Origin: an uncultured delta proteobacterium
GTDB lineage: Bacteria; Desulfobacterota; DSM-4660; Desulfatiglandales; HGW-15
Length of the DNA: 64,000 nt
Assembly: GCA_963702565.1 (NCBI GenBank)
Contig: CAVPDE010000001.1
Coordinates: forward strand, 6,104 to 70,103
Direction: 5' to 3'
Below, in pieces: positions 20,091 to 40,396 of the stretch. The notes below the pieces were generated by a model, which was not told the DNA's origin, searched no databases, and saw only the letters and a list, made by a program, of their open reading frames with translations. The first letter of the stretch is position 1; each line of letters starts with the position of its first letter. The translations under genes and the position numbers were made by a program.

Positions 20091-20530
20091 TCAAGCTCGC
20101 CCTCGTCATGCTTCTGGCTTTGGTCGCCTTTCCCTGTCCGGCCGCCGGACAGCCCTCCAAGGAATCACAGAAAACCAATACGAAAACAACGTCGGACCTC
20201 GAGATCTCCGAAATCACCTTCAAACTCAAGAGCCCGGGCAAGGAGGTCGTGTGGATTCAAGGCAACCGATTTTTCACCCCAACGGCCTTTGCCATGGAAG
20301 AGGACAAACCTCGGTTCGTCATCGACCTCAAGGATGCCCGGCCTGTGAAACGGGAACTGTCCCGGATAGCGGCGGACGGTCAATTCATTGAGAGGATACG
20401 GACCTTCTACCACCGGGAGAACCGGACCCTCAGGGTGGTCCTAGATCTCCATCCCTCCAAGAAGTACCGGATCAGCCAGTTCTTCTATCAGGCCCAGAAC
20501 ATCTACGCAGTGGAAGTGGAAGGCGAGTAG
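20087..20530 (+). CDS. Secreted AMIN-domain-like protein
   Basis: Signal peptide MIKLALVMLLALVAFPCPAAG, then AMIN-like strands (RFVIDLKDARP, LRVVLDL). There is an ATGA overlap with the epmA stop. Confidence 0.55.
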   Translation: MIKLALVMLLALVAFPCPAAGQPSKESQKTNTKTTSDLEISEITFKLKSPGKEVVWIQGNRFFTPTAFAMEEDKPRFVIDLKDARPVKRELSRIAADGQFIERIRTFYHRENRTLRVVLDLHPSKKYRISQFFYQAQNIYAVEVEGE

Positions 20531-20661
20531 TGCTGCCTCTGGTTCTTATGGGCAAGTCCAATACTGCAACCGAACCGCCGTCCAGCCGTTAGGTTCAACC
20601 AGGGCACTTCTGGGATATCTCCTTCACTCTATATCGAGAACCATACCTGATCAAATGCGGT

Positions 20662-21489
20662 TTACTCACACATCCAAATTTTCCTCCAGACAGCTAAGTG
20701 AATACAACGATGAGCAGGATGTGGACAATCCATCTGTCCCGCCCCCATTTCCGGAGACGGTATCCCCGGTGGATACTCCCCCTCCACGGCCAGCCTATAC
20801 CATTGCAGACCTGCATCCCACACAACCCAGCGTGCAGTTCCGGTGCAAACGCATCCCTGCGCGAATTCATCGTATTTGAAGATCCCTGAATACTGATCAG
20901 GTGGGTCAGCGTTCTCGCAGCCCGCTCCTCCCCCCATACATGAATAGCTCGAACAATTATTATGAAGAGGGTTCCCTCCGTATTCGCATCTGACACCGAC
21001 AAACAGATTATGCCCCCAATATCCGTAAGACTGTACCCTCAAACCTCCCCAACCATGAGTCCCGACGGAATCATCCATCGTGACAACGGCTGAGCCGCAA
21101 GCCGTGCTCCCTGCACATAGCTCGATCTTTTGATAATCTCCGTTCACTATCGCAGTCTGGCTAGGTCCTCCTTGCGTATTGAAATAGAAGCCACTCCCGT
21201 GGGCCGCGACGAGTTGGAGTGTGTAGGTCGGTTTTCCCCAGCCTCCCGAATCGACCCATATCTCTACACACTGACCACGAGATAGCGTGCCTTCCTCTAA
21301 GCTGTCCCAATCCACGCCCATTGTAAGAACGACGGCAGACTTCCAGTTCACAGGGTACGTCAACGCCTGCCCTGAACCCGTAGGCACGACACACATGTTC
21401 TCCTGAGCCCATACCATCGAACTCATGCTCATAAAGAACACCAAGAACAGCCAACAAAAAGCCAGCCTATTCACAGCCCATCTTCTCAT
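20662..21489 (-). CDS. Cys-rich secreted protein, paralogue P3 (unknown family)
   Basis: ATG at 21489 preceded by aaaaaaaagggg. Signal peptide MRRWAVNRLAFCWLFLVFFMSMSSMVWAQENMC. Here it is in frame with the upstream RHS fragment, which gives the 466-aa ORF call 20662..22062. Confidence 0.55.
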   Translation of the reverse strand: MRRWAVNRLAFCWLFLVFFMSMSSMVWAQENMCVVPTGSGQALTYPVNWKSAVVLTMGVDWDSLEEGTLSRGQCVEIWVDSGGWGKPTYTLQLVAAHGSGFYFNTQGGPSQTAIVNGDYQKIELCAGSTACGSAVVTMDDSVGTHGWGGLRVQSYGYWGHNLFVGVRCEYGGNPLHNNCSSYSCMGGGAGCENADPPDQYSGIFKYDEFAQGCVCTGTARWVVWDAGLQWYRLAVEGEYPPGIPSPEMGAGQMDCPHPAHRCIHLAVWRKIWMCE

Positions 21490-22062
21490 GGCATTCCGCC
21501 CCTTTTTTTTCCTGTTCACTCGAAGTGACTCCCAATCTCCGCCCCGCCCAAACGTTATTCCATTCCTGTTTGGCTCATACCCATACGTCTGCTCCCTCGG
21601 CCGCCCTGGATTGGATACGGTCACACAATCACACTCCCCTGCCTGGTTGTTCACCGTACCACCAAACCCGTTGGTCAACCCCTTCGGTCCCCCAAACGGG
21701 TTGTAGGTCAGCCCGCTCACAAGATTGCCAAATCCACTCGCGCTGACCGAAGCGATCTTCCCAAGCTGGCTGTCCCTCGTATTCGTCACCACCCTCCCGC
21801 TCGGGTACGTCACCGAAGCCACTCTCCCTCCCGGTCCATAGGCGGAGGTAACCGCGTAGCTGACGTTGTTGATCGTGCTCGTCTTCTGCACCAGCCTTCC
21901 CCTGGGATCATAGCCGAAGGCGATAGCCCCAGAGGGGTCGGTCATGTCCGTCAGGCGACCCTTTCCATTGGTCCGCAGATCGTAGGTGTAGCCAACATCG
22001 TCAGTCGTCCCCGGATAGTCTGCCAGAGTGACCCTGTTCAGGTTGTCATAAGTGTATTCCAC
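21490..22062 (-). pseudogene. Orphan RHS core fragment (EYTYDNLNRV .. NPGRPREQTYGYEPNRN) plus conserved leader
   Basis: About 90% aa identity to the distal core of the main RHS gene. It lacks an N-terminus and lacks the PxxxxDPxGL core end. Confidence 0.7.
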
Positions 22063-22420
22063 CGCACCCTTGGCACAGAGGCCGTCACAAATGTCTTGAA
22101 CTGGCAGCTATCCAGGTGCCGCCACCGCCGACTCTCCCATCCATGCACGTGCATGCATTGCCCGCACTCCGGGCATGCCCAGACCGCCTCTGCACACGCC
22201 ACTTCGACCTCGATCTCCCCGGCCTCCTTCCTCTTCTTCACCTTCTGCACCGACCACGGCGGCTGAAGCCCCAGGATCTGCTCATAAAGTTTGGTATCGT
22301 TCATGGCCAGAGTCTATCAGGCCCAAGAAGAAATCACACGGAAAAGCCGGAAGGACCTTTCTTATTGACAAGTTCACAAACATACATCCAGGGATGTAGC
22401 TTTGACATAAGTGAAGAGCC
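22063..22420 (-). mobile_element. Truncated ISL3-family insertion sequence (left IR + 5' UTR + first ~80 codons of the transposase)
   Basis: The terminal IR GGCTCTTCACTTATGTCAAAGCTAC reads inward from 22420. ORF 22038..22304 has the ISL3 zinc-finger N-terminus (ILGLQPPWSV..CPECGQ..RRWRHLD..VPRV), then runs out of frame into RHS sequence. Confidence 0.7.
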
Positions 22421-22576
22421 AAATAGCCACTTGTGCCTCGCCAGAGTGCTGATACTCTCATCTATCATGCAATTCTTCCCATGTACGGCTCTTCACAGCT
22501 AACTTGCACATGGCACATCATCCGAGGATGTCAGGACGAGCAACCAAAGTCTGACCAAGTTTGTCATAAAGACACC

Positions 22577-23320
22577 CTACGGCACCGGCACGCATTGCCA
22601 TTCGTACTTAAATACATCGGACGTAGGAACGAAACACCCTGAAGTCGGTATAGTACAACTGAGATCTGAGAAATGAACTGCTGCACATTGCTCAGGAGTT
22701 CCGCATGGGGGATCCGGGGACGCATCCCAATTACCCCCGCCTCCCGGTGACATACACTGCGTCTCAGCCTGAACGCGAAATCTCCAAAATATCGCCCCAT
22801 CATCAACGTCAGAGTAATAGTAATGAGGCCAATTCCCCGGAACATTGCTCGGAGCACAACCTATTTCGTTAACTGCACTGGCTTGCCAGACAAGTTCCCA
22901 TTGACCACCTGCATATCGTATCTTTACTGTATCTGTGGAAAGGCAGGCGTCCGTCACCGTAACTACAGCAAATACATCGTGGTCTTCTCCGCAGGTGCCA
23001 CTAGCTACAGTCAGCACTGTGTAATCCAAGTCCCCGTTCGTCGTCGTCTTGCTCAGGCTGTAACCCGTTCCCTGTACCTGCCAGGTGTATTCGAAAGGAG
23101 AACACCCCCATGCTGCGCGAAGAGAAACCGGCTGTGCGGGGCTGATCTCCTCAGCGCTCGCAATGATCGTCAAGGCAGAGTCCAACTGATTCAACGTCTG
23201 CCCTGAACCCGTAGGCACGATGCACATGTTCTCCTGCGCCCAGGCCCCCGCGCTCGTGCTCATGAACACCAACAGAAACAGCCCACAAAAGGAAAGCCTA
23301 ATCGCCCCTTCTCTTCTCAT
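22577..23320 (-). CDS. Cys-rich secreted protein, paralogue P2 (unknown family)
   Basis: 247-aa ORF with signal peptide MRREGAIRLSFCGLFLLVFMSTSAGAWAQENMCIVPTGSGQ. It has many Cys residues and shares GNW.H.Y and DPPCG.P..CA motifs with P1. Confidence 0.6.
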   Translation of the reverse strand: MRREGAIRLSFCGLFLLVFMSTSAGAWAQENMCIVPTGSGQTLNQLDSALTIIASAEEISPAQPVSLRAAWGCSPFEYTWQVQGTGYSLSKTTTNGDLDYTVLTVASGTCGEDHDVFAVVTVTDACLSTDTVKIRYAGGQWELVWQASAVNEIGCAPSNVPGNWPHYYYSDVDDGAIFWRFRVQAETQCMSPGGGGNWDASPDPPCGTPEQCAAVHFSDLSCTIPTSGCFVPTSDVFKYEWQCVPVP

Positions 23321-23394
23321 GGCATTCCCCCCTTTTCTTCCTGTTCACTCGAAGTGACTCCCTATCTCCGTCCCGCCCAATCGCTATCACGTTC

Positions 23395-23774
23395 CTATTT
23401 GGCTTATACCCATAAGTCCGCTCCCTCGGCTGCCCTGGATTGGATACGGTCACACAATCACACTCGCCAGCCTGGTTGTTCACCGTTCCCCAAACCCATT
23501 CGTCAATCCCTTTGGCCCTCCGAAGGGGGTGTAAGTCACCCCGCTCACGAGATTGCCAAACCCAGTCGCGCTGACCGAAGCGATCTTCCCAAGCTGGCTG
23601 TCCCTCGTGTTGGTCACCACCCTCCCGCTCGGGTAGGTCACCGAAGCCACTCTCCTCCCGGTCCATAGGCGGACGTAACCGGGTAGTTTATGCTGTTAAT
23701 GGTGCTCGCCTTCTGCACCAGCCTTCCCCTCGAATCATACCCAAAGGCGATGATTCCCGATGGATCGTAAACCG
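23395..23774 (-). pseudogene. Orphan RHS core fragment (DPSG .. TYGYKPNRN), frameshifted
   Basis: Homologous to the distal RHS core. It is split between frames (ORF 23298..23666 changes from nonsense to GTVNNQAGECDCVTVSNPGQPRERTYGYKPNRN). Confidence 0.65.
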
Positions 23775-23830
23775 GTAGGTTTTAAGGTTGCTGGTGCGAA
23801 ACCTAAAAACCTTAGAACGTCCCTATTCTC
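23775..23830 (-). repeat. Cassette-boundary hairpin element, copy E3
   Basis: GTAGGTTTTAAGGTTGCTGGTGCGAAACCTAAAAACCTTAGAACGTCCCTATTCTC. Same family as 29009-29073, 32432-32495 and 40322-40396. Confidence 0.85.
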
Positions 23831-23959
23831 CAACAACCGCCTTGTGAGTCTGAGTGGGGAGCTTCAAAGGCTCACAACATTTAGCGGTTCATCACGCTGA
23901 CCATCATACAGAGCTACTGACTTTAGGACACGCTTCATCAAAAGTAGTAAGTCGCCAAT

Positions 23960-24238
23960 CTAATATAGAATCACCAAGATTGTTACGAACCACATAGCGG
24001 GGATACTGATTTTCACAACGATTCCCTTATAAAAGTGAAGCATGATTCCCGTGATGATCACTGAGCACCCAAACGTAAGAACGTTCCCTATTATGAAGGC
24101 AAGATCTCCTCGTGGAGAACCAAGGACCCTCTTGCCCACAAACACAAGGAAGAGCCAGACAGTGAAGAACAACACTACTCTGATTATCCTCCCTGGCTGA
24201 TTTTCCTCACCTGGCAAAACTCTTTGCTTTACTCGCAT
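23960..24238 (-). CDS. Small membrane protein, candidate immunity protein for toxin CT4
   Basis: 92-aa ORF with 3 hydrophobic helices in a visibly AT-richer stretch. Its ATG sits inside the last codons of the upstream ORF (ATGCGAGTAA). Confidence 0.5.
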   Translation of the reverse strand: MRVKQRVLPGEENQPGRIIRVVLFFTVWLFLVFVGKRVLGSPRGDLAFIIGNVLTFGCSVIITGIMLHFYKGIVVKISIPAMWFVTILVILY

Positions 24239-25641
24239 GGATTAGAACTCCATTTTTCCCATACATTTATATTTTCGTCTGGCATCCAAAGGAGATCAAA
24301 AACCTTTGGGGGTGGGTCGAAGTGGTCCTTGTAGTGCAGGAAAATCAGGAAGTCCTCGTTCGGAACACCGGCTTCCGATGGATTTAAGTAATCATAGGCT
24401 AAGATAGCAGCAGGAGTGATGGGGGTGTTCAATCCTTTCTCAATGATCGGGGCAATTACATCTCCCCCTCTAACGTACTTCTTCAGAGTATCTAGAATGG
24501 GGATAATAATTCCCCCCCTTTAACCCGGAAGGGTCCGTCCAATTAGTGGGGTTGTTTTGGACGTAGGCATAGAGATTCAGGCTTTGGGGAGTTACCAAGG
24601 TGTAGTGGTGCAGTGCATCCGCGATTACGAAACGCTGAAGTTCACGTAAACTCGTGAGCGCAGCCGGGGCTTGTACGATTTTGCCGAGTGACGATTGCCT
24701 GCCCATCTGAATCTGCGAAAGGTTAAGAGGATCAGGGGTGATGTACCTCCCAGTCTTTGGATCATAGTAACGGTTGTGGTTGTAGTGGAGGCCGGTCTCC
24801 GTGTCGTAATACTGGCCGGGCAGCCTGATGTTGTTCACCACGCTTGAGCTGGGATGGATATGGGCCTCACCAAATGGCTCATACCAGGCTTCCCAAGCCA
24901 CAGTCCCGTTGCATTCGTGAGGATTTCGGGAGTGCCGAGGCGGTCATTCAGGTAGTGGTAAAGCGCTTGCCACCAGCCACATCCACCATGGCAACACGGA
25001 CTTTGCCCATGTAGAGGTATTCCTTCGTCATGGTGCCGTTGGGCAGGCTCTCGGCAATCAGCTTCCCATCAAGGTCGTAATGGTAAACCGTGGTTACTCC
25101 CACCAGCGACCTTCTTCACCCTCTGTCCTAATCCGTTGTAGGTGTACGTGGCTATTGTGTTTGCTCCCTCCTTCACCTCCTTCAGCTGGTTGTTCTGGTC
25201 GTAAATGAAGGTCAGAGTGCCATCACTCGTGGGATTGCCGTTGGCATCATAGCTGAAGGTTCTCGGGTTTTGTCCCCCGGTGATCTGGTAAAGGCTGTTG
25301 GTTCCTGCATAGTAACGTGTAGTTCTCAACCGACTCCGTTGGTGTTCCTCGTGAGCCTGTTTCCCACATCATCATAGGTGTAGGCGATGGTGCCGTATCT
25401 TCCCGGGCAGAAGTCAAGCCTGTTCAGCTCATCATACCCGAAGGTCTGGTTGTACCAGGGAGTAGTCGTGCCGGTGATGGATGTGAGGTTGCGGTTTGAG
25501 TCATACCCATAGGTCCTCTCCCTCGGTTGTCCCGGATTGGACACGGTCACACAGTCGCACTCCCCCGCCTCGTTGTTCACCGTCCCCCAAACCCATTAGT
25601 CAAACCCTTTGGGCCTCCAAACGGGTTGTAAGTCAGTCCGC
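24229..25641 (-). pseudogene. Frameshifted continuation of the chimeric RHS copy B: distal core, PxxxxDPxGL end and toxin domain CT4
   Basis: ORF pieces 25326..25580, 25069..25329, 24470..24901 and 24229..24432 together reconstruct the RHS core end (GRYITPDP..NNPTNWTDPSGL) and a ~97-aa C-terminal domain if 1-nt indels are corrected. Confidence 0.65.
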
Positions 25642-28600
25642 TTACGAGATTGCCAAATCCGGTCGCGCTGACCGATGAGATCTTCCCGAGCGGCTGTTCC
25701 TCGTGTTCGTCACCACCCTCCCGCTCGGGTACGTCACCGAAGCCACTCTCCCTCCCGGTCCATAGGCGGAGGTAACCGGGTAGCTGATGCTGTTAATGGT
25801 GCTCGTCTTCTGCAACAACCTCCCCCTGGCATCATAGCCGAAGGTAATAGTCCCAGAGGGGTCGGCCATGTCCGTAAGATGACCTTTTCCGTTGGTGCGC
25901 AGATCATAGGTGTAGGCAATGTCATCAGCCGTCCCCGGATAGTCTGCCACAGTGACCCTGTTCAGGTTATCATAGGCGTATTCAACCGTCACAGCCTTGG
26001 CGTCCTTCTTATATCTCAGGTTCCCCGCCTCGTCATATGCATACCTCGTAATCCCCGTATCCGGAGAAGTCGTGGACACCACCCTCCCCAAATCGTCATA
26101 CACGTAGGTCGTGACGTGCGAGTTGGCATCCGTGACACTGGCGAGATTCCCCTGACCGTCATATCCGTATCCCGTTACCAGGTCCCTCAGGCTCGGATCA
26201 TTCACCCATTGCGCCACCTCCTCGATCCTATCCATGAAGTCATACCCGTAGGTCGTCAGATTCCCGTTCGGGTCTTCCATGGAACTCACATTCCCGGCAT
26301 CGTCATACCCGTATTCACGGTATGTGTCATCCGGCTGAATCTCCCGGTACAGCCTCCCAGGATAGCTGGGATGCTCATAACTCCACCGCGTCCTCGATTT
26401 GCGCTCATCACCGCTCGTGTACTTGCCCCTCTCAACCACGTTACCCCGGGGGTAAACTTCATAATCGTGCCTGATGTAGTTCGCCCCTTGATCGAGGATC
26501 TTCCAGAGCCTTGCGTAGTTATCATACTGGAACCCCTGGATTACACCGTCAGGGTCCGTCACCGAAACCAGCAGCCCTCCGACATAGGCAAACTGGGTGG
26601 AGCTGTCCGGATCATCGGCAAAATTCGTGATGGAGGTGATTCTTCCCCGGCCATCATAGGAAAAGCCCTTGGCCTGGCTGTTCACGTCCGTTATCGTCCC
26701 CGGCCTTCCCGCGTTATCGTAAACCGCAAAATAGGTGCTCCCGATATGAGGCTGGGTAACGGATTCCAGGTTGCCCGTGGAGCCGTTGTAGGTGAAGGTC
26801 GTCATATCCCCGCTGCCGGCCCTCGGACCGTCCACGGAGAGAACCTGGCCCTTGGCATTATAGGTGAAGGTCGTCACATATTCATAGGCCTGGGTCGTAT
26901 TGTTGATATCCTTCGTGTGTCCCTGCTCCACGATCCTGGAGAGCAGCAGGGTGGGGCTTTCATTGGCCGTGGCATCATAATCGTTGTCATAGTCCCAGAT
27001 CGTCACCTTGTTCCCGCCGCCAAAAACGCTCGCCTCTGTCCGCGTCAGGGGCACGTTCATGTCCGGATGAAAGGTGTAGTAAATGGTCCGCTGCTCGGGT
27101 GATCCGTAAGCCAAAATGACGGTTCCCGGATTCCCTCTCTCATCGTAATTCTGGTAGCGGTCTATTCTCCCTCCCCCGTATTCCACCTCGGAGAGCCTTC
27201 CCCACTCATCATAAACCCACTCCACGGCATTGCTCTCTGCATAGGGCGCATTGGTGGTCCCCGTCATTGAGCCCAGTCTTTTCAGCCCATCGACGGTCAC
27301 CAGAGCGTAGGTTCGGGTAATGTCATAGACATCCTTCACCTGCACCTGGTTGGGTTGATAAGTGACCAGCTCCACCCCCTTCCCGTCGGGCGATCGGCAG
27401 ACAGTAGCCTGGTCATTCGTGTTGTAGGACCACTCCCGGAGGATATGATTGAGGGAGTCCTTTTTCTGGGTAAGATTGTGAACGTCATTGGCGTCGTTGT
27501 AGACATAAGTGATTCCCGACCCGTCAGCATAGGTCACCGTGGTCAGGTTCTGGTTCCCGTCATAGCCGTATTCCACCCATATCCCGTCATCTACAGCAGC
27601 CGTGACAGGCCCGGTGATGCTTGTCAGCAGCCCGCTGGTGTAATTAAAAGTGAGCACCCGGCCGCTGGCATTGTCGGTCACGGTCTGGAGCCGTCCCTCG
27701 CCGTCATAGGCAAGGGCCAGGGCATTCCCCTTTTCGTCCTCCATCGAACTGAGCCGGCCTGCACTCGTGAATGCGTACCGGCTTCCGTCAAGCCGGTACC
27801 AGGAATACCCTCCTCCCTCGGCCAGGACAAAGCTTCGCTCCCCAAACACTCCTGCATAGTATCCCGTGACCTCTTGAATGAAATACGAGGCTTTGCCGGT
27901 TCCGTCGATGATCTTCAGGAAAGTCCTGCTCCCGAGTTGAGAGGAGGGGTTGAGCGCAGCGCCAAAACTGTGGAACCAGCCATAACCGAGCATCCCGGTC
28001 TGAGTCGCCCGGCTGTTGTAGGCGGCTCTGAAGTTGAAGCTAAGGCTGTTGGGTGAGGGAAAGCTCAGATCTTCCCTGTACTCCAGTGCATTTCCGTTCG
28101 TGATCCTGATGGAGCCTGCCACCAATCCCGCCTCGCCTTGCTGTTCCTCCGGAGCGTAACCCAAGCCCTCGTCCTGGTAGGAATCCGAAGAGGGCGGCAC
28201 TTCGTTTTGGTTGCCAGGGTCTGTGTTGAAGACGTATTCCAGGTAATTTGAAAAGCCGTCACCGTCGTGATCGCCGTTCCTCCCCTGGCTCAGGTCAGGG
28301 AAGTACGCAAGCTCCCACCAGTCAGGAAGCTCGTCACCATCATCATCCCTGCCATAAGGGATGCTCGTTACAGCGACTGTGGCACTATCCGTTGCCGTGC
28401 CCCCTGGGCCGACAGCGGTAATCACATAGGTAGTGGTCACCTCAGGAGTCACCTTGTAGCTCTCAGTGACCCCGTTGGTGTTCCTCGTGACCCTGTTCCC
28501 CACATCGTCATAGGTGTAACCGATGTTTCCGTATCGCCCGCTGGCACTAGTCAACCTGTTCAGTTCGTCATACCCGAAGGTCTGGTTGTACCAGGGGGTA

Positions 28601-28953
28601 GTTGTGCCGGTGATGGAAGTGAGGTTGCGGTTTGCATCATACCCGTAAGTGCGCTCTCTCGGCTGTCCAGGGTTGCACACGGTCACGCAATCACACTCCC
28701 CAGCCTGGTTGTTCACAGTACCTCCGAAGCCATTCGTCAATCCCTTGGGGCCTCCAAACGGGTTGTAGGTCAACCCGCTTACGAGATTGCCGAACCCACT
28801 CGCGCTGACCGAGGCGATCTTCCCAAGCTGGCTGTCCCTCGTATTCGTCACAACCCTCCCGCTGGGATATGTCACCGAAGCCACTCTCCCTCCCGGTCCA
28901 TAGGCGGAGGTAACAGGGTAGCTGATGCTGTTAATGGTGCTCGTCTTCTGCAC
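25642..28953 (-). CDS. RHS/YD-repeat protein, chimeric copy B (orphan core end fused to a duplicate of the main gene from its Ig-like domain onward); no signal peptide
   Basis: 1103-aa ORF. The first ~160 aa are distal-core sequence ending NTNGVTESY, joined to KVTPEVTTTYVITAVGPGG and then many YD repeats nearly identical to 34731-37210. Confidence 0.75.
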   Translation of the reverse strand: MQKTSTINSISYPVTSAYGPGGRVASVTYPSGRVVTNTRDSQLGKIASVSASGFGNLVSGLTYNPFGGPKGLTNGFGGTVNNQAGECDCVTVCNPGQPRERTYGYDANRNLTSITGTTTPWYNQTFGYDELNRLTSASGRYGNIGYTYDDVGNRVTRNTNGVTESYKVTPEVTTTYVITAVGPGGTATDSATVAVTSIPYGRDDDGDELPDWWELAYFPDLSQGRNGDHDGDGFSNYLEYVFNTDPGNQNEVPPSSDSYQDEGLGYAPEEQQGEAGLVAGSIRITNGNALEYREDLSFPSPNSLSFNFRAAYNSRATQTGMLGYGWFHSFGAALNPSSQLGSRTFLKIIDGTGKASYFIQEVTGYYAGVFGERSFVLAEGGGYSWYRLDGSRYAFTSAGRLSSMEDEKGNALALAYDGEGRLQTVTDNASGRVLTFNYTSGLLTSITGPVTAAVDDGIWVEYGYDGNQNLTTVTYADGSGITYVYNDANDVHNLTQKKDSLNHILREWSYNTNDQATVCRSPDGKGVELVTYQPNQVQVKDVYDITRTYALVTVDGLKRLGSMTGTTNAPYAESNAVEWVYDEWGRLSEVEYGGGRIDRYQNYDERGNPGTVILAYGSPEQRTIYYTFHPDMNVPLTRTEASVFGGGNKVTIWDYDNDYDATANESPTLLLSRIVEQGHTKDINNTTQAYEYVTTFTYNAKGQVLSVDGPRAGSGDMTTFTYNGSTGNLESVTQPHIGSTYFAVYDNAGRPGTITDVNSQAKGFSYDGRGRITSITNFADDPDSSTQFAYVGGLLVSVTDPDGVIQGFQYDNYARLWKILDQGANYIRHDYEVYPRGNVVERGKYTSGDERKSRTRWSYEHPSYPGRLYREIQPDDTYREYGYDDAGNVSSMEDPNGNLTTYGYDFMDRIEEVAQWVNDPSLRDLVTGYGYDGQGNLASVTDANSHVTTYVYDDLGRVVSTTSPDTGITRYAYDEAGNLRYKKDAKAVTVEYAYDNLNRVTVADYPGTADDIAYTYDLRTNGKGHLTDMADPSGTITFGYDARGRLLQKTSTINSISYPVTSAYGPGGRVASVTYPSGRVVTNTRNSRSGRSHRSARPDLAIS
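25975..28454 (-). repeat. 2.48-kb near-identical direct repeat, copy 2 (partner 34731-37210, offset 8756 bp)
   Basis: Shadow ORFs 27355..28056, 28065..28262 and 27336..27530 are identical in sequence to 36111..36812, 36821..37018 and 36092..36286. Only a handful of aa substitutions occur across the RHS frame. Confidence 0.9.
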
Positions 28954-29008
28954 CAGCCTCCCCCTCGAATCATACCCAATGGCGATGATTCCCGATGGAT
29001 CGTAAACC

Positions 29009-29073
29009 GGGACGCCAGTAGGTTTTAAGGTTGCTATTGCGAAACCTTAAAACCTTAGGATGTCCCCATTCTC
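29009..29073 (-). repeat. Cassette-boundary hairpin element, copy E2
   Basis: GGGACGCCAGTAGGTTTTAAGGTTGCTATTGCGAAACCTTAAAACCTTAGGATGTCCCCATTCTC. It has a perfect 13-bp stem, 29020-29032 with 29043-29055. Confidence 0.85.
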
Positions 29074-29245
29074 TCTCGTGGCATTTCTAAATGTCAATGG
29101 TCCCTATAATGAAAGTCTTGGGGAACGTTTCAAACTGCGCCGGGCCAAGAGCTTGCTCCCTATCGGAAGGCTGAAGGAGAGGCGCGGGCTGAGAAAAGAG
29201 GGATTTGGTCTCTCGGCGACAATTACTTGAGCCCTAGGGATAGGG

Positions 29246-30019
29246 TTATTGACATGTCCAAGCCTGGTAGGTCACCCAGCTGTAGTAAGGATACCCGTTG
29301 CCGAAACTGCACGAACAGGCAGACCAATCCGCACAAGCCGAAGGACCACCACACGGCGGGTTTGGTTCATACCAGTGGCTCCAGTTTCCTATAGGTTGGT
29401 TAGCGCATTGGTCCTGGTAATGGTAAAAATCTGTCTGAAGCAACCATCTATGGGCATTTCCGTTGTAAATATATCGAGCACGAGGATTGGGGGGATCGCC
29501 ACAAATACTAAGCCCCGGAATCATAAGGTTAACATCATCCCTCCAAACTGGTTTCCAATCTCCATTGCTGCTCCTCAGGTCGCTGGTAGCCCTCATTCCA
29601 GCCTCATCCGAAATGCTTACTGCGACTGTTCCACAAGCATTATTTTCAGCGCATAGGTCAATACTTTCACCATCGCGATCAGTTACTGCAATCTGGCTTT
29701 GGCCTCCTTCGGTATTGAAATAGAAATTATCTCCAGATACTATTTCTAAGGTGAAAGGAGGTTTTGCGAAGCCGTCGGAGTTCACCTTAACCCCCACGCA
29801 TTGGCCACCAGGAAGCGTGCCTTCCACCAAACTACCCCAATCCACGCCCATTGTAAGAACGACCGTAGACTCCCAGTTCACAGGGTACGTCAACGCCTGC
29901 CCTGAACTCGTAGGGACAATGCACATGTTCTCCTGCGCCCAGGCCCCTGCGCTCATGCTCACGAACACCACCAAGAACAGACAACAAAAAGCCAGCCTAT
30001 TCACAGCCCATCTTCTCAT
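29246..30019 (-). CDS. Cys-rich secreted protein, paralogue P1 (unknown family)
   Basis: ATG at 30019 after aaaaggggggg. Signal peptide MRRWAVNRLAFCCLFLVVFVSMSAGAWAQENMC. The N-terminal ~130 aa are close to P3 and the C-terminal Cys-rich part is divergent. Confidence 0.6.
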   Translation of the reverse strand: MRRWAVNRLAFCCLFLVVFVSMSAGAWAQENMCIVPTSSGQALTYPVNWESTVVLTMGVDWGSLVEGTLPGGQCVGVKVNSDGFAKPPFTLEIVSGDNFYFNTEGGQSQIAVTDRDGESIDLCAENNACGTVAVSISDEAGMRATSDLRSSNGDWKPVWRDDVNLMIPGLSICGDPPNPRARYIYNGNAHRWLLQTDFYHYQDQCANQPIGNWSHWYEPNPPCGGPSACADWSACSCSFGNGYPYYSWVTYQAWTCQ

Positions 30020-30094
30020 GGCCTTCCCCCCCTTTTCTTCCTGTTGACTCGAAGTGACTTTCGATCTCTGCCCCACTCAATCGCCATCACGTTC

Positions 30095-30418
30095 CTGTTT
30101 GGCTCATGCCCATACGTCCGCTCCCTCGGCTGCCCCGGGTTGGATACGGTCACACAATCACACTCCCCAGCCTGGTTGTTCACCGTTCCCCCGAACCCAT
30201 TCGTCAAACCCTTGGGCCCTCCGAAGGGGTTGTATGTAAGGCCGCTCACGAGATTGCCAAATCCGGTCGCGCTGACCGAAGCAATCTTCCCAAGCTGGCT
30301 GTCCCTCGTATTCGTCACCACCCTCCCGCTGGGATATGTCACCGAAGCCACTCTCCCTCCCGGCCCATAGGCGGAGGTAACCGGGTAGGCTACGCTGCTG
30401 ATGGTGCTAGTCTTCTGC
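30095..30418 (-). pseudogene. Orphan RHS core fragment (QKTSTISS .. TYGHEPNRN), not preceded by the hairpin element
   Basis: ORF 30016..30351 reads MASVTYPSGRVVTNTRDSQLGKIASVSATGFGNLVSGLTYNPFGGPKGL..NPGQPRERTYGHEPNRN, then the conserved leader. Confidence 0.65.
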
Positions 30419-30480
30419 TTAGGCGGACACCGCCCTCAGAAGGGGTAGCTGTCAGACGAAATCTTAGCAACTACAGTTTA

Positions 30481-30762
30481 TCAAAGCCCTTTGCCACACT
30501 TAGTGCATTTCTTCGGAATCCAAGAAGTCCAGATACGCAGTTCGGTCCCGAAAACCTTTATGGGATTGGATAAGACTGGCTTCCCGCAATTCGGACACTT
30601 AAGTTTTAGACAGCATCCTCCAAGCACAAAAGCCACCACAATTAGAGGAACTAAGAAGTATTCTGTGAGGTATACTGTGCCGAACAACAAAATGAAGCCA
30701 CTCACCATCCAAACCAACAGTATTATCCGAAATTTTGCTCTTACAGTCATTTGCACCTGCAT
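30481..30762 (-). CDS. Small membrane + zinc-ribbon protein, candidate immunity protein for toxin CT2
   Basis: 93-aa ORF with two hydrophobic helices and CPNCG..CTKCG. It is AT-richer than its surroundings and starts 1 nt after the CT2 stop (TAGGATG). Confidence 0.55.
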   Translation of the reverse strand: MQVQMTVRAKFRIILLVWMVSGFILLFGTVYLTEYFLVPLIVVAFVLGGCCLKLKCPNCGKPVLSNPIKVFGTELRIWTSWIPKKCTKCGKGL

Positions 30763-30763
30763 C

Positions 30764-32431
30764 CTATTCGCACGGATTCAATTGAGTTGCCTCCCAAAAT
30801 CGATTGTTCTCTTGTGCCAAGGATTTCAAAAGGCGGAGTAAGTCTCGAAGGGTGAATGTCCCGGTAAGGCTAACCGTGCCAGAGGCTCCAATCGGGGTAG
30901 CGCTGGGACCGAAACCTATCGTACCACCGATGATCTCCTTCGATGTCGGGTCACCAATTAGTGTAATGCTAATAGGGCCAGCGACAATGTTAATATTTGT
31001 CGTTAATCCACGGACGTTTCCGATGCCTCCGCGAACAAATCCAGCAAAGATGTCAGCTGAGATATTTACTCCTCCTCCAGAGCCGACTGAGCCAAACACC
31101 CCTACATCAGCTTTATCTTTCCCTAAGCCAGGATTGATTACAACACCTCCACTTCCTTCTATTCCAGTGGGGGCTACGGCACTCCCGCCAATCCCTAGCA
31201 AAAAGTCTATAAGCCCAAGAGGATCAATGGAGTTCACTGGATTGTTTCTCACATAAGCGAAAAGGTTTATTCCCCCTACCTGCCCAATCGGATCAGGTGT
31301 GATGTATCTCCCAGTCTTGGGATCCTGGTAACGATGCAGGTTGTAATGGAGGCCCGTCTCGGCATCGTAATACTGGCCGGGCAACCGGATGTTGTTCACC
31401 ACGCTGGAGCTGGGATGAACATGGGCTTCGCCAAATGGCTCATACCAGGCTTCCCAGGCAACAGTTCCGCCCGCATTGGTCAGGATTTCGGGGGTGCCGA
31501 AGCGGTCATTAAGATAATGATAAATCGCATTGCCTCCAGTCACATCGACCATTGCAACCCTAACCTTGCCCATGTACAGGTATTCCCGGGTCATGGTGCC
31601 GTTGGGCAGGCTCTCGGCTATCAGCTTCCCATCAAGGTCGTAATGGTAAAGCGTGGTTATCCCACCAGCGACTTTCTTCACCCTCTGTCCAAGGCCGTTA
31701 TAGGTGTAGGTGGCTATCGCAGTCTGGCCCTCTTTCGCCTCTTTGAGCTGGTTGTTCTGGTCATAGATGAAGGTCAGAGTTCCGTCGCTCGTAGGATTGC
31801 CGTTGGCATCGTAGCTGAATGTTCTCGGGTCTTGTCCCCCGGTGATCTGGTAAAGACTGTTGGTTCCCGTGTAGTAACTGTAGCTCTCAGTGACCCCGTT
31901 GGTGTTCCTCGTGACCCTGTTCCCACATCATCATAGGTGTAGGCAATGGAGCCATACCTGCCTGATGCACTGGTCAACCTGTTCAGTTCGTCATACCCGA
32001 AGGTCTGATTGTACCAGGGCGTGGTTGTTCCCGCGATGGATGTGAGGTTGCGGTTTGGGTCATACCCATACGTCCGCTCCCTCGGCTGTCCTGGATTGGA
32101 TACGGTCACACAATCGCATTCCCCAGCCTGGTTGTTCACCGTTCCCCGAACCCATTCGTCAGCCCCGTCGGCCCTCCAAACGGCTTGTAAGTCAACCCGC
32201 TTGCCAGGGGTGTAGCAATTCCGCTCGCTGTCAGTTCCGAGATCTTTCCAAAAGCGTTCCTACCGTATGTCGTCACCCTCCCGCCCGGATAGGTCACAGA
32301 ACCGACCTTCCCTCCAAGCGTGTAGGAATACGTCACCGGGTAGTTGATGCTGTTGATCGTGCTCGTCTTCTGCACCAGCCTTCCCCTCGCATCGTAGGCG
32401 AATGCGATCAGTCCCGATGGATCGTAAACCT
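30764..32431 (-). pseudogene. Orphan RHS core end + glycine-rich C-terminal toxin domain CT2 (frameshifted in the core part; the last ~380 codons are open)
   Basis: ORF pieces 32136..32570, 31774..32139 and 30764..31681. The core end GRYITPDPIGQVGGINLFAYVRNNPVNSIDPLGL is followed by a Gly-rich domain (GIGGSAVAPTGIEGSGGVVINPGLG..GSVGSGGGVN). Confidence 0.7.
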
Positions 32432-32495
32432 GGGCGCCGGTAGGTTTTAAGGTTAATGGTGCGAAACCTAAAAGCCTTAGAACGTCCCCATTCTC
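32432..32495 (-). repeat. Cassette-boundary hairpin element, copy E1
   Basis: GGGCGCCGGTAGGTTTTAAGGTTAATGGTGCGAAACCTAAAAGCCTTAGAACGTCCCCATTCTC. Confidence 0.85.
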
Positions 32496-32553
32496 CTCAC
32501 GCCCGCCTCCTGTGATGGCCGTTCCTTCATCCGCATTCCGTATATCTGAATGA

Positions 32554-32940
32554 CTATTTGCTTTTCTCATAGTAGTAACCTAGGTCAGCATCAATATACA
32601 GCCGAAGGTTCCCTGCGAATGACCTCTTCACTTCCACGACCCAAAAACCAGCTTGCGTGGATCCGTATCCAGGTAACCCAAAAACAAAGCCGTGAAAAGT
32701 GAGCGTGGATCGGCCCTCAGAATATTCAAACTCCCACTTGTTGGCGTTCTTGATCTCTTTACCATCAAACGCCTTGTAATCGTAGGTGTAGGTTCCATCT
32801 GGCTTCAGATCGAGTGAATCAATACCCTTTTGATGGTTTGCCTTGTATTTCCCAAGGACCATCGGCCTTTCAATTGGCTTTTCACACCCGAAACAAATTA
32901 ATAGTAAAGCAAAGAGCATGGCAATTCCGATTCTGTTCAT
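32554..32940 (-). CDS. Lipoprotein, candidate immunity protein for toxin CT1
   Basis: 128-aa ORF with signal/lipobox MLFALLLICFGC in an AT-richer stretch. Its ATG overlaps the toxin stop (ATGA). Confidence 0.55.
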   Translation of the reverse strand: MNRIGIAMLFALLLICFGCEKPIERPMVLGKYKANHQKGIDSLDLKPDGTYTYDYKAFDGKEIKNANKWEFEYSEGRSTLTFHGFVFGLPGYGSTQAGFWVVEVKRSFAGNLRLYIDADLGYYYEKSK

Positions 32941-34736
32941 CGCTTAATGGCCTCCGTCCATGTGTAAGTCTGAGTCATGTTTCCACCAGGGCGAAAGGCT
33001 GAGCGACCCCAAGACGGGCCAATACCATAGAGGAATGAAGTCATGCTGGTTGTATTAGTGATTAAAAAAGCGGATAGAGCTGCCGTCAGGGGTGGGAATG
33101 ACATCAACCCGATAATTGCCAACAAACTGCTCCGTTGGGTCAAACCCTGCTTGCCAAAGCCCTTTGAGTCCAAAACCGGGGCTGTAGTTCAAGAGTGGTT
33201 CCAGATTTGGAGATTGGTCGCAAGGGTCACGTGAACCTAAAATCTTTGCGGCATTTTTGGCATAAAAAGCTTCTCTAGCCTTCTTGACACCGGGTGCGTC
33301 CATGAGGTCAGTTACTTGATTACTACCAGGGCTAAATGTTCGGACATCAGGACCCGTTCCAGTTAACCAAGCCGAGAACATGTTGAGTGACTCTGCCCAA
33401 GTCAACCCTGAAGGGTCTACAAGCCCGATCGGGTTGCCACGAACATAAGGATACAGATTAATCCCTCCGGCTTGCCCAATCGGGTCCGGCGTCAAGTACC
33501 TCCCTGTCTTTGGATCATAGTATCTGTGGTAGTTGTAGTGGAGCCCGGTTCTTGGTCGAAGTACTGTCCCGGCAACCTAATGTTGTTAACCACACTGGAA
33601 CTCGGATGGATGTGGGCTTCGCCGAAAAGGTTCATACCACGCCTCCCAAGCTACAGTCCCACTCGCGTTCGTGAGGATCTCAGGGGTGCCAAGGCGGTCA
33701 TTCAGGTAGTGGTAAAGTGCGTTGCCGCCAGCCACGTCCACCATTGCAACCCGCACTTTCCCCATGTACAGGTATTCCTTCGTCATGGTGCCGGCAGGGA
33801 GGCCCTCCGCAATCAGCTTCCCGTCCAGATCATAATGGTAGATCGTGGTTACTCCGCCTGCAACCTTCTTCACCCTCTGTCCCAAGCCGTTGTAGGTGTA
33901 CGTGGCTATTGTGTTCGCTCCCTGCTTCACTTCCTTCAGCTGGTTTTGCTGATCGTAAATGAAGGTCAGAGTTCCATCACTCGTGGGATTGCCGTTGGCA
34001 TCGTAGCTGAAGGTTCTGGGGTCTTGTCCCCCGGTGATCTGGTAAAGACTGTTGGTTCCCGTGTAGTAACTGTAGCTCTCATTGACTCCGTTGGTGTTCC
34101 TCGTAAGCCTGTTTCCCACATCATCATAGGTGTAGCCGATCGTTCCGTACCTTCCCATTGCAGAAAGTAAGCCTGTTCAGCTCATCATACCCGAAGGTCT
34201 GGTTGTACTGGGAGTAGTCGTCCCGGTGATGGATGTGAGGTTGCGGTTTGAGTCATACCCATAGGTCCTCTCCCTCGGTTGTCCCGGATTGGAAACGGTC
34301 ACACAGTCGCACTCCTCAGCCTGGTTGTTCACCGTCCCTCCAAACCCATTGGTCAAACCCTTTGGGCCGCCAAACGGGTTGTAGGTCAACCCGCTTACGA
34401 GATTGCCAAATCCGGTCGCGCTGACCGATGCGATCTTCCCAAGCTGGCTGTCCCTCGTGTTCGTCACCACCCTCCCGCTCGGGTACGACACCGAAGCCAT
34501 TTCCCTCCCGGTCCATAGGCGGAGGTAACCGGGTAGCTGATGCTGTTAATGGTGCTCGTCTTCTGCAACAACCTCCCCCTGGCATCATAGCCGAAGGCAA
34601 TAGTCCCAGAGGGGTCGGTCATGTCCGTCAGGCGACCCTTTCCATTGGTGCGCAGATCGTAGGTGTAGGCAATGTCATCAGTCTGTCCCCGGGATAGTCT
34701 GCCACAGTGACCCTGTTCAGGTTGTCATAGGCGTAT
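32937..34736 (-). pseudogene. Frameshifted 3' continuation of the main RHS gene: distal core, PxxxxDPxGL end and toxin domain CT1
   Basis: ORF pieces 34177..34500, 33586..34158, 33055..33495 and 32937..33173 follow colinearly on the 1713-aa ORF. The core end is TPDPIGQAGGINLYPYVRGNPIGLVDPSGL. Confidence 0.7.
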
Positions 34737-39851: not shown

Positions 39852-40321
39852 CTTTTCCTCCTCCCAATATGTGGTCAATGAGCCCAGTTTCTTCTTCTGT
39901 TATTTCAACCGCGTCTGAGAAAACCTGCTTAAGTCTTAATCCGATGGAGCCAGTTAGGGTTACTGTTGGCAATCTGGAATTTGACTTCTTGCTGGGACTG
40001 GAACTGAAAGCAAGGGATGAAGAAACACTTCTCGCATTTCTGTACGCAATTGCGGTGCCAGAACTTGGTCTTCCGGAGAGTAATTTCTCTTAGGAAACGT
40101 AGCTAAACGAGAACACGGCCCTATGTATTCACTGCCTCGCCTTCCACAGCAAGGTGAGCCGGCATTTTGCGGAGCTCTTGCTCCGAGGGATTGCACAATT
40201 CCTTGTGCTGCACTGCACAGAAAAGAGTGCAGAGGGAACGCAGAAGTCGGCTTCAAGGGTTTGTACTTACGGCTACTCCGTCTTCATTTCCGACAGATGA
40301 TCCTTCCACGTATGATAAACT

Positions 40322-40396
40322 GGGACGCTGTTAGGTTTTAAGGTTGCTAGCGATCGTCTCTTGGAAACCTAAAAACTATAGGATGTCCCCATTCTC
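40322..40396 (-). repeat. Hairpin element, copy E0 (enlarged loop), ~470 bp upstream of the main RHS start
   Basis: GGGACGCTGTTAGGTTTTAAGGTTGCTAGCGATCGTCTCTTGGAAACCTAAAAACTATAGGATGTCCCCATTCTC. Confidence 0.8.

Follow-up and report, generated by a model that had tools for sequence, protein, structure and literature searches.

Orphan-cassette-like units for predicted exported Ig-like, cysteine-rich proteins in a deltaproteobacterial rhs array

In an rhs array of an uncultured delta proteobacterium (GenBank assembly GCA_963702565.1, contig CAVPDE010000001.1), three genes for related cysteine-rich proteins, P1, P2, and P3, each stand behind an rhs fragment that breaks off at the same place. Why should genes for small proteins with export signals of their own follow a piece of rhs core, and what might their products do? 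The present analysis of a 64,000-nucleotide stretch of this contig (the window) suggests, on balance and with considerable room for doubt, that P1–P3 are orphan-cassette-like units of a signal-peptide rhs array and that their products are extracellular binding or targeting accessories.

Organization of the array and of the P cassettes

All elements of the array lie on the minus strand. The ORFs of P1–P3 are present where the earlier note had placed them, and a family HMM search found exactly these three P-family genes in the window.

34737–39878, minus: main rhs gene, N-terminal 1713 aa (ORF list, Pfam)
33055–33495, minus: toxin module 1, C-terminal, from the Rhs core end into CT1 (TIGR03696 Rhs_assc_core match)
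32554–32940, minus: candidate immunity gene 1, a 128-aa signal-peptide protein (immediately 3′ of CT1)
30764–31681, minus: orphan rhs core end and glycine-rich CT2 (PF03527, TIGR03696)
30481–30762, minus: candidate immunity gene 2, a 93-aa membrane protein (position and sequence; the order CT, membrane protein, P also in locus L011)
30098–30418, minus: rhs homology arm of the P1 cassette, ~320 bp, CAAAC at its end (self-BLAST, 86–87% against other rhs copies; alignments)
30020–30097, minus: P1 leader, purine tract A4G7 (alignments, tract comparison)
29246–30019, minus: P1, 257 aa, with Sec signal peptide (..AGAWA↓QENMC), Ig-like domain, and Cys-rich C-domain (ORF list, alignments, family HMM)
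24743–28454, minus: 3.7-kb duplicate, 96% identical to main rhs 33496–37210 (self-BLAST)
24470–24901, minus: Rhs core end and CT3 (TIGR03696)
23960–24432, minus: two small ORFs, candidate immunity gene(s) for CT3 (position only)
23397–23831, minus: rhs homology arm of the P2 cassette (DNA alignment, self-BLAST)
23321–23396, minus: P2 leader, purine tract A4G6 (alignments, tract comparison)
22577–23320, minus: P2, 247 aa (near-invariant Cys 33, 110, 155, 189, 222, 243)
22038–22304, minus: truncated N-terminus (zinc ribbon) of an ISL3-family transposase, separating the P2 and P3 cassettes (PF14690, E = 1.7e-12)
21568–22074, minus: rhs homology arm of the P3 cassette (DNA alignment, self-BLAST)
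21490–21567, minus: P3 leader, purine tract A8G4CGG; arm in frame in the window assembly only (ORF list, alignments, assembly comparison)
20662–21489, minus: P3, 275 aa, closing the array (90% nt identity with L001 of a different metagenome)

The N-terminal part of the main rhs gene comprises, in order, a Sec signal peptide, CarboxypepD_reg-like repeats, PASTA, DUF6531, and RHS repeats (Pfam); frameshifts disrupt the gene further downstream (34.7–33.5 kb). Pfam gave no family match for candidate immunity gene 1 or for the two small ORFs behind CT3.

DNA alignment places a single common junction in all three cassettes: the internal rhs fragments match canonical rhs copies as far as ...TATGGGYATRAGCCAAAY and then pass into one common leader, where canonical copies run on as NRNLTSITG. 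The common breakpoint proposed in the earlier note is therefore real, but its exact site is a CAAAC microhomology, the "RN" of the proposed "NRN" end coming from the leader (AGGAAC, versus CGCAAC in canonical rhs). The leader is likewise common to all three, although its length is ~78 nt and not ~100 bp; next come a purine-rich tract for ribosome binding and signal peptides that are nearly identical, and divergence begins after them. In self-BLAST the blocks of arm, leader, and signal peptide are 86–87% identical over 530–625 bp, and BLASTN detected no mutual similarity in the remainder of the genes, a pattern not to be put down to chance. Arm lengths range from 320 to 510 bp.

The leader had been read as a conserved translation, but its substitutions are mostly non-synonymous in the arm frame, and because its translation is not conserved as protein it is probably untranslated. 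A sigma-70 scan of the P leaders found no promoter. At locus L010 the leader is kept from CAGGRAC onward, but what lies upstream is a Y1_Tnp gene and unrelated sequence, which marks the leader as part of P and not of rhs. At P1 the arm-frame stop and the start codon of the gene overlap (ATGA); at P2 the arm frame terminates 23 nt into the gene, and the arm has 1-nt deletions in the window where the ENA assembly has none. The 466-aa ORF said to join rhs and P3 exists in the window (20662–22062) but is assembly-dependent, since in the ENA contig 1-nt indels that offset one another, together with a stop codon within the leader, leave no in-frame fusion. The purine tracts vary between cassettes as described and are identical in the window, the ENA assembly (L004), and, for P2 only, the Logan assembly (L005). 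We infer that the P proteins are translated independently, from their own Shine–Dalgarno-like tracts, and exported.

Origin, family, and fold of the P genes

The P junction descends from a single ancestral fusion, later copied inside a narrow Desulfobacteraceae-like clade, since the junction is identical and the leader is common to all copies; the picture of repeated grafting onto the same breakpoint given in the earlier note is thus not upheld. Sought in independent genomes, the junction is present in the metagenomes L001 and L006 (separate JGI contigs from other samples). More distant rhs-linked P relatives lack it. The P3-type body is found with three different signal peptides, and such mosaic alleles prove exchange at the signal-peptide/mature boundary; in addition, P2 and P0005 are 90% identical in DNA to about codon 111 and divergent beyond. 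The dN/dS ratios of the P genes (0.18–0.33; 0.33 for P3 versus L001) point to purifying selection and hence to real genes.

A profile search (E ≤ 1e-3) collected 631 clusters, and the family matched nothing in Pfam, NCBIfam, PHROGs, PADLOC, or PDB sequences, in agreement with the earlier description of Sec-signal proteins with no recognizable domain; it is large and previously undescribed. Its layout runs from a Sec signal through an Ig-like β-sandwich to a hypervariable C-domain with six near-invariant cysteines that ends in W-x-C-P. The bodies of P1–P3 do diverge after the signal peptide (identity 47% for P1/P3 and 32% for P1/P2), but they are homologous end to end, with the Ig domain and six conserved cysteines, and are not unrelated 3′ ends. 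The AF2 model of P2 has a pLDDT of 79 overall and of 94–98 across the Ig domain; in the C-domain confidence is only moderate, and Foldseek matched this domain to no known fold. Foldseek matches to the model were only generic (Ig, BIG2, intimin, phage tail or decoration).

Nine P relatives carry an in-frame TGA at the invariant Ig-domain Cys position, with a SECIS-like hairpin 13–31 nt downstream whose loop contains GU and which shows compensatory changes. The median MFE of this hairpin is −10 kcal/mol in TGA genes versus −1.75 in Cys genes, and some Cys forms retain apparent fossil hairpins. The TGA and the hairpin together indicate that the nine are selenoproteins. In this they resemble bacterial selenoprotein families with Cys homologues, where TGA likewise falls on an invariant Cys with a hairpin just 3′; in contrast to those families, the P forms are predicted to be exported and rich in disulfides, and their fold is Ig-like, neither thioredoxin-like nor any other known redox fold. 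The selenocysteine (Sec) form of P has no NCBIfam entry, and a 2026 selenoproteome review, searched by term, gave no secreted or Ig-like selenoprotein.

Linkage to rhs and phage genes

Co-occurrence of the family with rhs loci elsewhere, raised in the earlier note, is found at nine further loci outside the clade (L007, L008, L011, L012, L026, L037, L039, L041, and L042), where short P forms lie beside signal-peptide-bearing rhs genes or rhs fragments. These loci differ in junction, gene order, and sequence (26–50% identity) and are all co-directional; L012 belongs to a second phylum, Planctomycetota. In L012, L039, and L041 the P gene precedes rhs, and one P subtype is found with different toxin types. 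The rhs-linked share, ~9 of 24 short-form loci, is a rough lower bound, as most family contigs are short; L010, L034, and L036 show no rhs within flanks of up to 6 kb. Because rhs genes are rare in genomes, chance adjacency is expected well under 1%. In L042, an Rhs core and glycine-rich C-terminal domain continue in frame into a mature P module, so that the statement that P could not be encapsulated is not absolute.

The family also belongs to the make-up of phage structural gene clusters, on the tail side. Long P forms adjoin major head and major tail genes, P0003 adjoins a terminase, and some members lie in phage modules without rhs. In P0141, a phrog_1101 tail protein, the Ig and six-Cys module forms the extreme C-terminus, as in phage receptor-binding and tail proteins with an Ig-like and a distal specificity domain, and the distal part is hypervariable as it is there. 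P1–P3, however, are small and free-standing, with an export signal and no tail-attachment domain, and Foldseek matched the C-domain to no solved receptor-binding protein.

The closest genetic parallel is with rhs orphan toxin/immunity modules, which likewise appear promoter-less and lie downstream of the main rhs gene (Poole 2011, PMC3150448; Koskiniemi 2014, PMC3967940). Both kinds of unit begin with an rhs core fragment able to recombine with other copies, carry a variable payload past a fixed boundary, and form arrays that grow by duplication. The P units differ in that the arm stops ~260 codons before the PxxxxDPxGL core end, in that toxin domain and immunity gene are absent, and in that the payload stands as a gene apart, equipped with a ribosome-binding site and Sec signal peptide of its own. 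The main Rhs protein itself resembles Sec/T2SS-type polymorphic toxins, systems reportedly treated by Zhang and co-workers in 2012, and bacterial teneurin-like proteins in its signal peptide, N-terminal β-sandwich repeats, YD shell, polymorphic C-terminus, and downstream immunity gene. In a preprint on teneurin-like proteins (bioRxiv 10.1101/2025.11.11.687626), an immunity gene is the only downstream partner reported, and a term search of it turned up no P-like partner.

Possible functions of the P proteins

The constant 5′ arm with variable 3′ ends does recall polymorphic toxins, as the earlier note proposed. P1–P3 could themselves be secreted polymorphic toxins or bacteriocins, shuffled through the rhs arms, in which the Ig domain serves uptake or receptor binding and the disulfide-rich C-domain kills. 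The conserved N-terminal part, the displaced and hypervariable C-terminal part with its mosaic alleles, the location inside toxin arrays, and the in-frame module of L042 would all fit. We nevertheless consider this unlikely: no toxin domain is recognized, the C-domains are variants of one six-Cys scaffold and not unrelated folds, the same module terminates phage tail proteins, and no conserved small gene follows P1–P3 as an immunity partner, the gap to the next element being only 130–270 bp. Since no immunity-like partner was seen after the P genes of the array (ORF list), the analogy holds for genetics but not necessarily for function.

It is quite unlikely, in our view, that rhs linkage is mere hitch-hiking of phage-derived or unrelated secreted-protein genes amplified in a recombination hot spot. 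The junction as a single lineage-specific accident, the nearby IS remnants (ISL3 in the window, Y1_Tnp in L010 and L026), the phage modules without rhs, and the heavy rearrangement of the array speak for it, but the diversity and common orientation of the nine further loci and purifying selection on the P genes speak against it. A role in immunity or protection, in the periplasm or outside the cell, against externally acting Rhs toxins, the cassettes being orphan immunity genes, is improbable. P1–P3 are small proteins with export signals in an rhs array, and arrays of this kind often contain orphan immunity genes (PMC10539506, PMC3150448); P is not adjacent to the C-terminal toxin, however, other small membrane or exported proteins hold the immunity position, and neither the loci with P upstream of rhs, the pairing of one subtype with different toxins, the fusion to a toxin end in L042, nor the homologues that end phage tail proteins agree with such a role. 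That mis-assembled rhs repeats of a metagenome bin created the repeated junctions is scarcely credible: both assemblies have indel noise in repeats (24 small indels separate the window from the ENA assembly), and the ENA contig forms a self-closing 19.9-kb unit, but that assembly holds all three cassettes with their distinct tracts, the Logan assembly holds P2, the cassettes differ from each other by ~13% (self-BLAST), and the junction recurs on the JGI contigs.

As a binding or targeting accessory, P would have a counterpart in logic in Myxococcus TraA, a recognition receptor of the cell surface that is polymorphic, rich in cysteine, and coupled to the polymorphic SitA toxins: in both, a polymorphic, cysteine-rich, exported recognition protein would be coupled to polymorphic toxin delivery. 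We know of no sequence or domain kinship between the two, and to our knowledge P has no PA14 domain, MYXO-CTERM tag, or TraB partner. Selenocysteine typically signals redox catalysis and not binding, and its presence in relatives counts against a binding role. In the model that we favor for P1–P3 as accessories of the rhs array, each unit would consist of an internal rhs fragment acting solely as a homology arm, an untranslated leader with a Shine–Dalgarno-like tract, and a free-standing gene for an exported protein. The fusion at CAAAC would have given the P gene a recombinational mobility like that of rhs toxin/immunity orphans, and further exchange points at the conserved signal-peptide end (WAQENMC[IV]VPTG) and close to the Ig-domain GTCG motif would allow mature parts to be swapped. 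The variable C-domain would then decide the binding target, and the invariant Cys of the Ig domain (Sec in some relatives) would serve as a reactive residue.

Anatomy of the P cassettes in the rhs array

Within the 64-kb window, rhs sequence is confined to one array, and the family HMM detects P1–P3 as the only members of their family. The array contains the following features.

~39.9 kb to 20.66 kb, minus strand: the rhs array (ORFs, domain matches)
34737-39878, minus strand: main rhs gene, with signal peptide, CarboxypepD_reg-like repeats, PASTA, DUF6531, and RHS repeats
24743-28454 versus 33496-37210: 3.7-kb duplicate of the main rhs gene, 96% identical
29246-30019, minus strand: P1
22577-23320, minus strand: P2
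22038-22304, minus strand: truncated N-terminus (zinc ribbon) of an ISL3-family transposase, between the P2 and P3 cassettes
20662-21489, minus strand: P3

Downstream of the main rhs gene lie three core-end/toxin modules, each with one or more small candidate immunity genes. A chimeric join, in which an rhs C-proximal fragment is fused to mid-gene sequence (KVTPEVTTTY), precedes the 3.7-kb duplicate, and the P3 rhs arm truncates the ISL3 transposase fragment. Single-nucleotide indels split both the main rhs gene and its duplicate into several ORFs (window 33500-34770 and 24900-25700); some of these indels are absent from the ENA assembly and may therefore be consensus errors in repeats rather than signs of pseudogenisation.

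Each P gene follows an arm, an internal rhs fragment (~320, 435, and 507 bp for P1, P2, and P3, respectively) that is 86-89% identical to other rhs copies and, as in orphan cassettes, has rhs core homology without the rhs N-terminus. The earlier note had proposed that the three fragments end at one shared place, and alignment of the DNA to the canonical copies bears this out: the arms follow those copies up to ...TATGGGYATRAGCCAAAY, beyond which each of them continues into a common sequence, the leader. The junction had been placed at the motif NRN, with which canonical copies continue (NRNLTSITG). It is indeed shared, but the exact break is a CAAAC microhomology, and it is the leader that supplies the "RN" of NRN (AGGAAC versus the canonical CGCAAC). 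The arms end at ..YGYxPN, ~260 codons short of the core end, and the cassettes contain neither a core end (PxxxxDPxGL/Rhs_assc_core) nor a toxin domain; no conserved ORF, and no cognate immunity gene, was found in the 130-270 bp after P1–P3. The arm, leader, and signal-peptide blocks are 86-87% identical over 530-625 bp, and DNA homology ends 129 bp into the gene for P2 versus the others and 223 bp into it for P1 versus P3. The description of a constant 5′ arm with variable 3′ ends thus holds at the DNA level, but P1–P3 still belong to one family, with protein identities of 47% (P1/P3) and 32% (P1/P2).

The leader measures ~78 nt, not the ~100 bp first estimated. Most of its substitutions are non-synonymous when read in the frame of rhs, and its consensus fold is weak (-7 kcal/mol, one covarying pair); we therefore infer that it is an untranslated 5′ region, in which the purine run AAAAGGGGGG, located 6-8 nt before the ATG of the P genes, would be the ribosome-binding site. 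A coding tail of the rhs fragment was rejected on the same substitutions and on the differing frame among copies; a structured or known RNA was likewise rejected on the weak fold and single covarying pair, and Rfam returned zero matches to the leader or any other part of the window. No leader promoter was found by a sigma-70 consensus scan, a result that is uninformative for this phylum.

The least persuasive rival reading, that the cassettes are an assembly artefact, could appeal to the 24 small indels, nearly all in repeats, by which the two long assemblies (window and ENA) differ, and is met by the ENA contig L004 (98.65% identical), in which each of the three cassettes is present and has the same tract as in the window (A4G7, A4G6, and A8G4CGG). 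The Logan contig L005 also contains P2 with its tract, and the differences in tract length remarked on earlier are therefore reproducible. The ENA version has a stop in the leader, its P3 arm is out of frame with P3, and P3 itself is split, while the window's P2 arm and duplicated rhs have frameshifts that the ENA version lacks. Given this leader stop and the indel differences, the 466-aa in-frame RHS–P3 ORF of the earlier note deserves no weight. L004 (19,900 bp) contains the array in circularly permuted form, with its junction at 12872/12873; it joins window 20452 to 40355 with almost no homology, and the resulting unit of 19,903 bp corresponds to the length of L004. Either the entire rhs locus is duplicated in tandem or the closure is an assembly loop.

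Spread of the junction and exchange among P genes

The earlier note had allowed for the junction being absent from independent genomes; the same arm/leader junction is present on two JGI contigs from other samples, L001, with a P3-like gene, and L006, with a P2-like N-half. On a Desulfobacteraceae MAG contig (L010), an L006-type gene keeps the leader from CAGGRAC onward, and a Y1_Tnp transposase-like gene and unrelated sequence stand upstream in place of the arm. All three contigs are close relatives (85-92% DNA identity), and more distant relatives do not have this junction. Among named relatives, the closest to the window is a Desulfobacteraceae MAG. The simplest reading of these alignments is that one ancestral arm/leader fusion was probably later copied and moved by rhs homology. 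Y1_Tnp (IS200-like) genes adjoin P genes in two lineages (L010:2-1039 and L026:2795-3808). In L010 the gene takes the place of the rhs arm, with the switch precisely at the boundary to the leader, and a 28-nt direct repeat comes after it; the copy in L026 has a further match, to a C-terminal helix-turn-helix of the DnaA type.

Modular exchange among the P genes is real. The P3-type mature protein is paired with three signal peptides, namely the window's own, a P2-type (L001), and an MGMKGK-type (database protein P0010); P2 and the database protein P0005 have 90% DNA identity to ~codon 111 and diverge thereafter. The breakpoints of the mosaic alleles lie at WAQENMC[IV]VPTG and near GTCG. The dN/dS ratios of the P genes (0.18-0.33) indicate purifying selection. 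On another contig (L024:561-2170), two tandem family genes have near-identical signal peptides and different mature parts, which suggests that cassette-like duplication of the family also occurs without rhs (none is present on this 2.2-kb contig). Variation of the DGR type was rejected because a template repeat is absent: self-BLAST over 20-41 kb found no repeat of any P 3′ region, and the variation is whole-domain and not adenine-specific.

An Ig-like protein family and its putative selenoprotein members

Word-indexed searches retrieved only a handful of relatives of P1–P3. A profile search of 1.84 billion representatives returned 631 at E<=1e-3 and 198 at E<=1e-10, most of them 230-290 aa and aligned over their full length; the family thus comprises at least 631 clusters, all unannotated. 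In its architecture, a signal peptide precedes a short N-terminal strand that bears Cys33; next come a β-sandwich of Ig-like type (~100 residues; motifs CPPYxW, SGTCG, TVTVTDxCG, and IRNxGxW) and a very variable C-domain that terminates in (Y)(E)WxCP. Six cysteines (33, 110, 155, 189, 222, and 243 in P2 numbering) are 97-99% conserved. In an AF2 model built on a 150-sequence alignment (overall pLDDT 79.4, pTM 0.70), the Ig domain (residues 50-145) is all β with pLDDT 94-98, and the C-domain scores 56-85.

That the proteins contain no recognised domain has held up. Pfam, NCBIfam, PHROGs, PADLOC, and a PDB sequence profile yielded zero family matches for P1–P3, and no Pfam family, including Big_1/2/3 and related curated models, matched them at E<=1. 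Seven further short- and long-form members (P-sized and N-terminally extended, respectively) matched no Pfam family at E<=0.1, and the two phage-type proteins matched unrelated domains only. The Foldseek search suggested in the earlier note, run with two AF2 models against PDB and BFVD, found generic Ig-like domains only (E ~1e-3 to 1e-2; TM-scores up to 0.5-0.6, to small single-domain targets), with no whole-protein or C-domain match. Thus, the P proteins resemble Big/BIG2/intimin-type proteins in their predicted β-sandwich fold, but a match to the corresponding sequence models is absent.

In nine relatives the invariant Cys of SGTCG, which P1–P3 keep, is replaced by an in-frame TGA, after which the frame continues (L020:1373, L021:1662, L025:147, L026:2148, L028:337, L030:790, L034:1246, L036:564, and L039:2255). 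These relatives include both short rhs-linked and long forms and are 36-61% identical among the seven compared; their contigs are metagenome pieces of 1-7 kb. A reassigned genetic code was rejected, as the in-frame TGA is confined to one conserved position and TGA codons nearby in the same contigs act as normal stops. A SECIS-like hairpin with a GU-containing tetraloop lies 13-31 nt after the TGA. Its cells are paired in 90.5% of cases, versus 25-57% in slid controls, three cells are compensatory (changes G:C to U:A and G:C to C:G), and the hairpin is more stable in TGA genes (median MFE -10.0 kcal/mol) than in Cys genes (-1.75). It matches no Rfam family. Three Cys genes (L015:1576, L016:918, and L018:2150) retain such a hairpin (-5 to -10 kcal/mol), as if they were recent Sec-to-Cys conversions. 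Database entries of TGA members are truncated at the UGA; P0025 and P0143, for example, end exactly there. Collectively, the TGA members look like an unannotated family of exported Ig-fold selenoproteins, of which there is no entry in NCBIfam; term searches of a 2026 prokaryotic selenoproteome review likewise found no secreted or Ig-like selenoprotein. Judged from these genes, the putative Sec/Cys pair marks this Ig-domain residue as functionally critical.

Genomic company and possible role of the P proteins

When co-occurrence of the family with rhs loci was surveyed, as the earlier note advised, nine more loci proved to have a short form next to rhs genes, and the two are co-directional in every case.

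L011: Rhs (complete, 2129 aa, same architecture) → membrane protein (99 aa) → P
L012 (Planctomycetota MAG): P → ORF (51 aa) → Rhs (3148 aa)
L026, L037: Rhs C-terminal toxin → small genes → P
L039, L041: P → start of Rhs gene
L007, L008: P with rhs fragments downstream
L042 (731-1732): orphan Rhs core and glycine-rich C-terminal domain, read in frame into a P module at its mature start, ...DQEACIVPTIPG...

The last of these is a natural Rhs–P fusion, with no stop between the parts and no convincing internal start. All four rhs genes with visible N-termini (the window's, L011, L012, and L041) encode signal peptides. The P-linked Rhs proteins have a conserved CxC motif (GECDCV) 16 residues before the cassette junction (window rhs copies, e.g., the 28690-28700 region, GECDCVTV; L011 RHS aa 1714-1716; L012 RHS aa 2695-2697; L041 aa 1052-1054) and are otherwise Cys-poor, with 8-10 Cys in 2000-3000 residues. 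The motif is a weak lead and lies in a segment that does not align to solved T6SS Rhs structures.

Long forms have an extra N-terminal region of ~220 aa and, together with multi-domain proteins bearing the module, occur in phage structural gene clusters. In L044, for example, a gene for a major head protein lies upstream, L022 has a match to a major tail protein, a tail protein of phrog_1101 bears the P-family module at its end, and a terminase gene adjoins the gene for P0003. A viral contig scan with the family alignment returned zero matches. Downstream of one long-form member, L019:5758-9066 encodes a 1103-aa protein with a match to ART-PolyVal, the ADP-ribosyltransferase of polyvalent phage proteins.

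We infer that the P proteins are exported and that, outside the cell, they serve signal-peptide-bearing Rhs toxins as accessories for binding or targeting, because they combine an Ig fold with a hypervariable disulfide scaffold, because the module is found at the distal end of phage tail proteins, and because co-directional linkage to rhs is repeated and one Rhs fusion exists. Among the rival readings, P might itself be a toxin. Polymorphic toxins sensu Zhang et al. 2012 reportedly have a conserved N-part, C-parts replaced at a conserved boundary, a toxin domain, and a paired immunity gene; the mosaic alleles of the P genes show exchange of the C-part at a conserved boundary, but the P genes have no toxin domain (Pfam, NCBIfam, PHROGs, PADLOC, PDB) and no partner gene. 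P might instead be an immunity factor. Rhs immunity proteins are encoded right behind the toxin that they neutralise and are specific to its type; however, other small genes hold the post-toxin position, P precedes rhs in L012, L039, and L041, and the two are fused in L042. The linkage might also be hitch-hiking, against which stands the co-directional placement in nine further loci.

The genetic logic of the P cassettes is that of rhs orphan modules and as such is already known; the payload and the family are undescribed, with no earlier description in the curated libraries or literature searched. Beyond the accessory role, we consider it possible, albeit unlikely, that the P family is a new exported Cys/Sec class common to phage tails and signal-peptide Rhs toxins, in which the reactive Ig Cys/Sec links covalently to a partner or target and the hypervariable six-Cys domain specifies the receptor. 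The covalent link would be a disulfide or selenylsulfide, with the CxC of the Rhs shell as one candidate partner. If this is true, then P would be a targeting subunit that has so far been missing and that would account for how Rhs toxins reach their targets in the absence of a T6SS, and P cassettes would switch target range.

To our knowledge, how Sec-exported Rhs toxins, which use neither T6SS nor T7SS, find and enter diderm targets is not understood, and a conserved, polymorphic, exported partner gene provides a concrete candidate for the delivery of Sec-type Rhs toxins. Moreover, rhs arrays can mobilise payloads beyond toxin/immunity pairs, and the P family forms a connection between bacterial toxin loci and the tail modules of phages.
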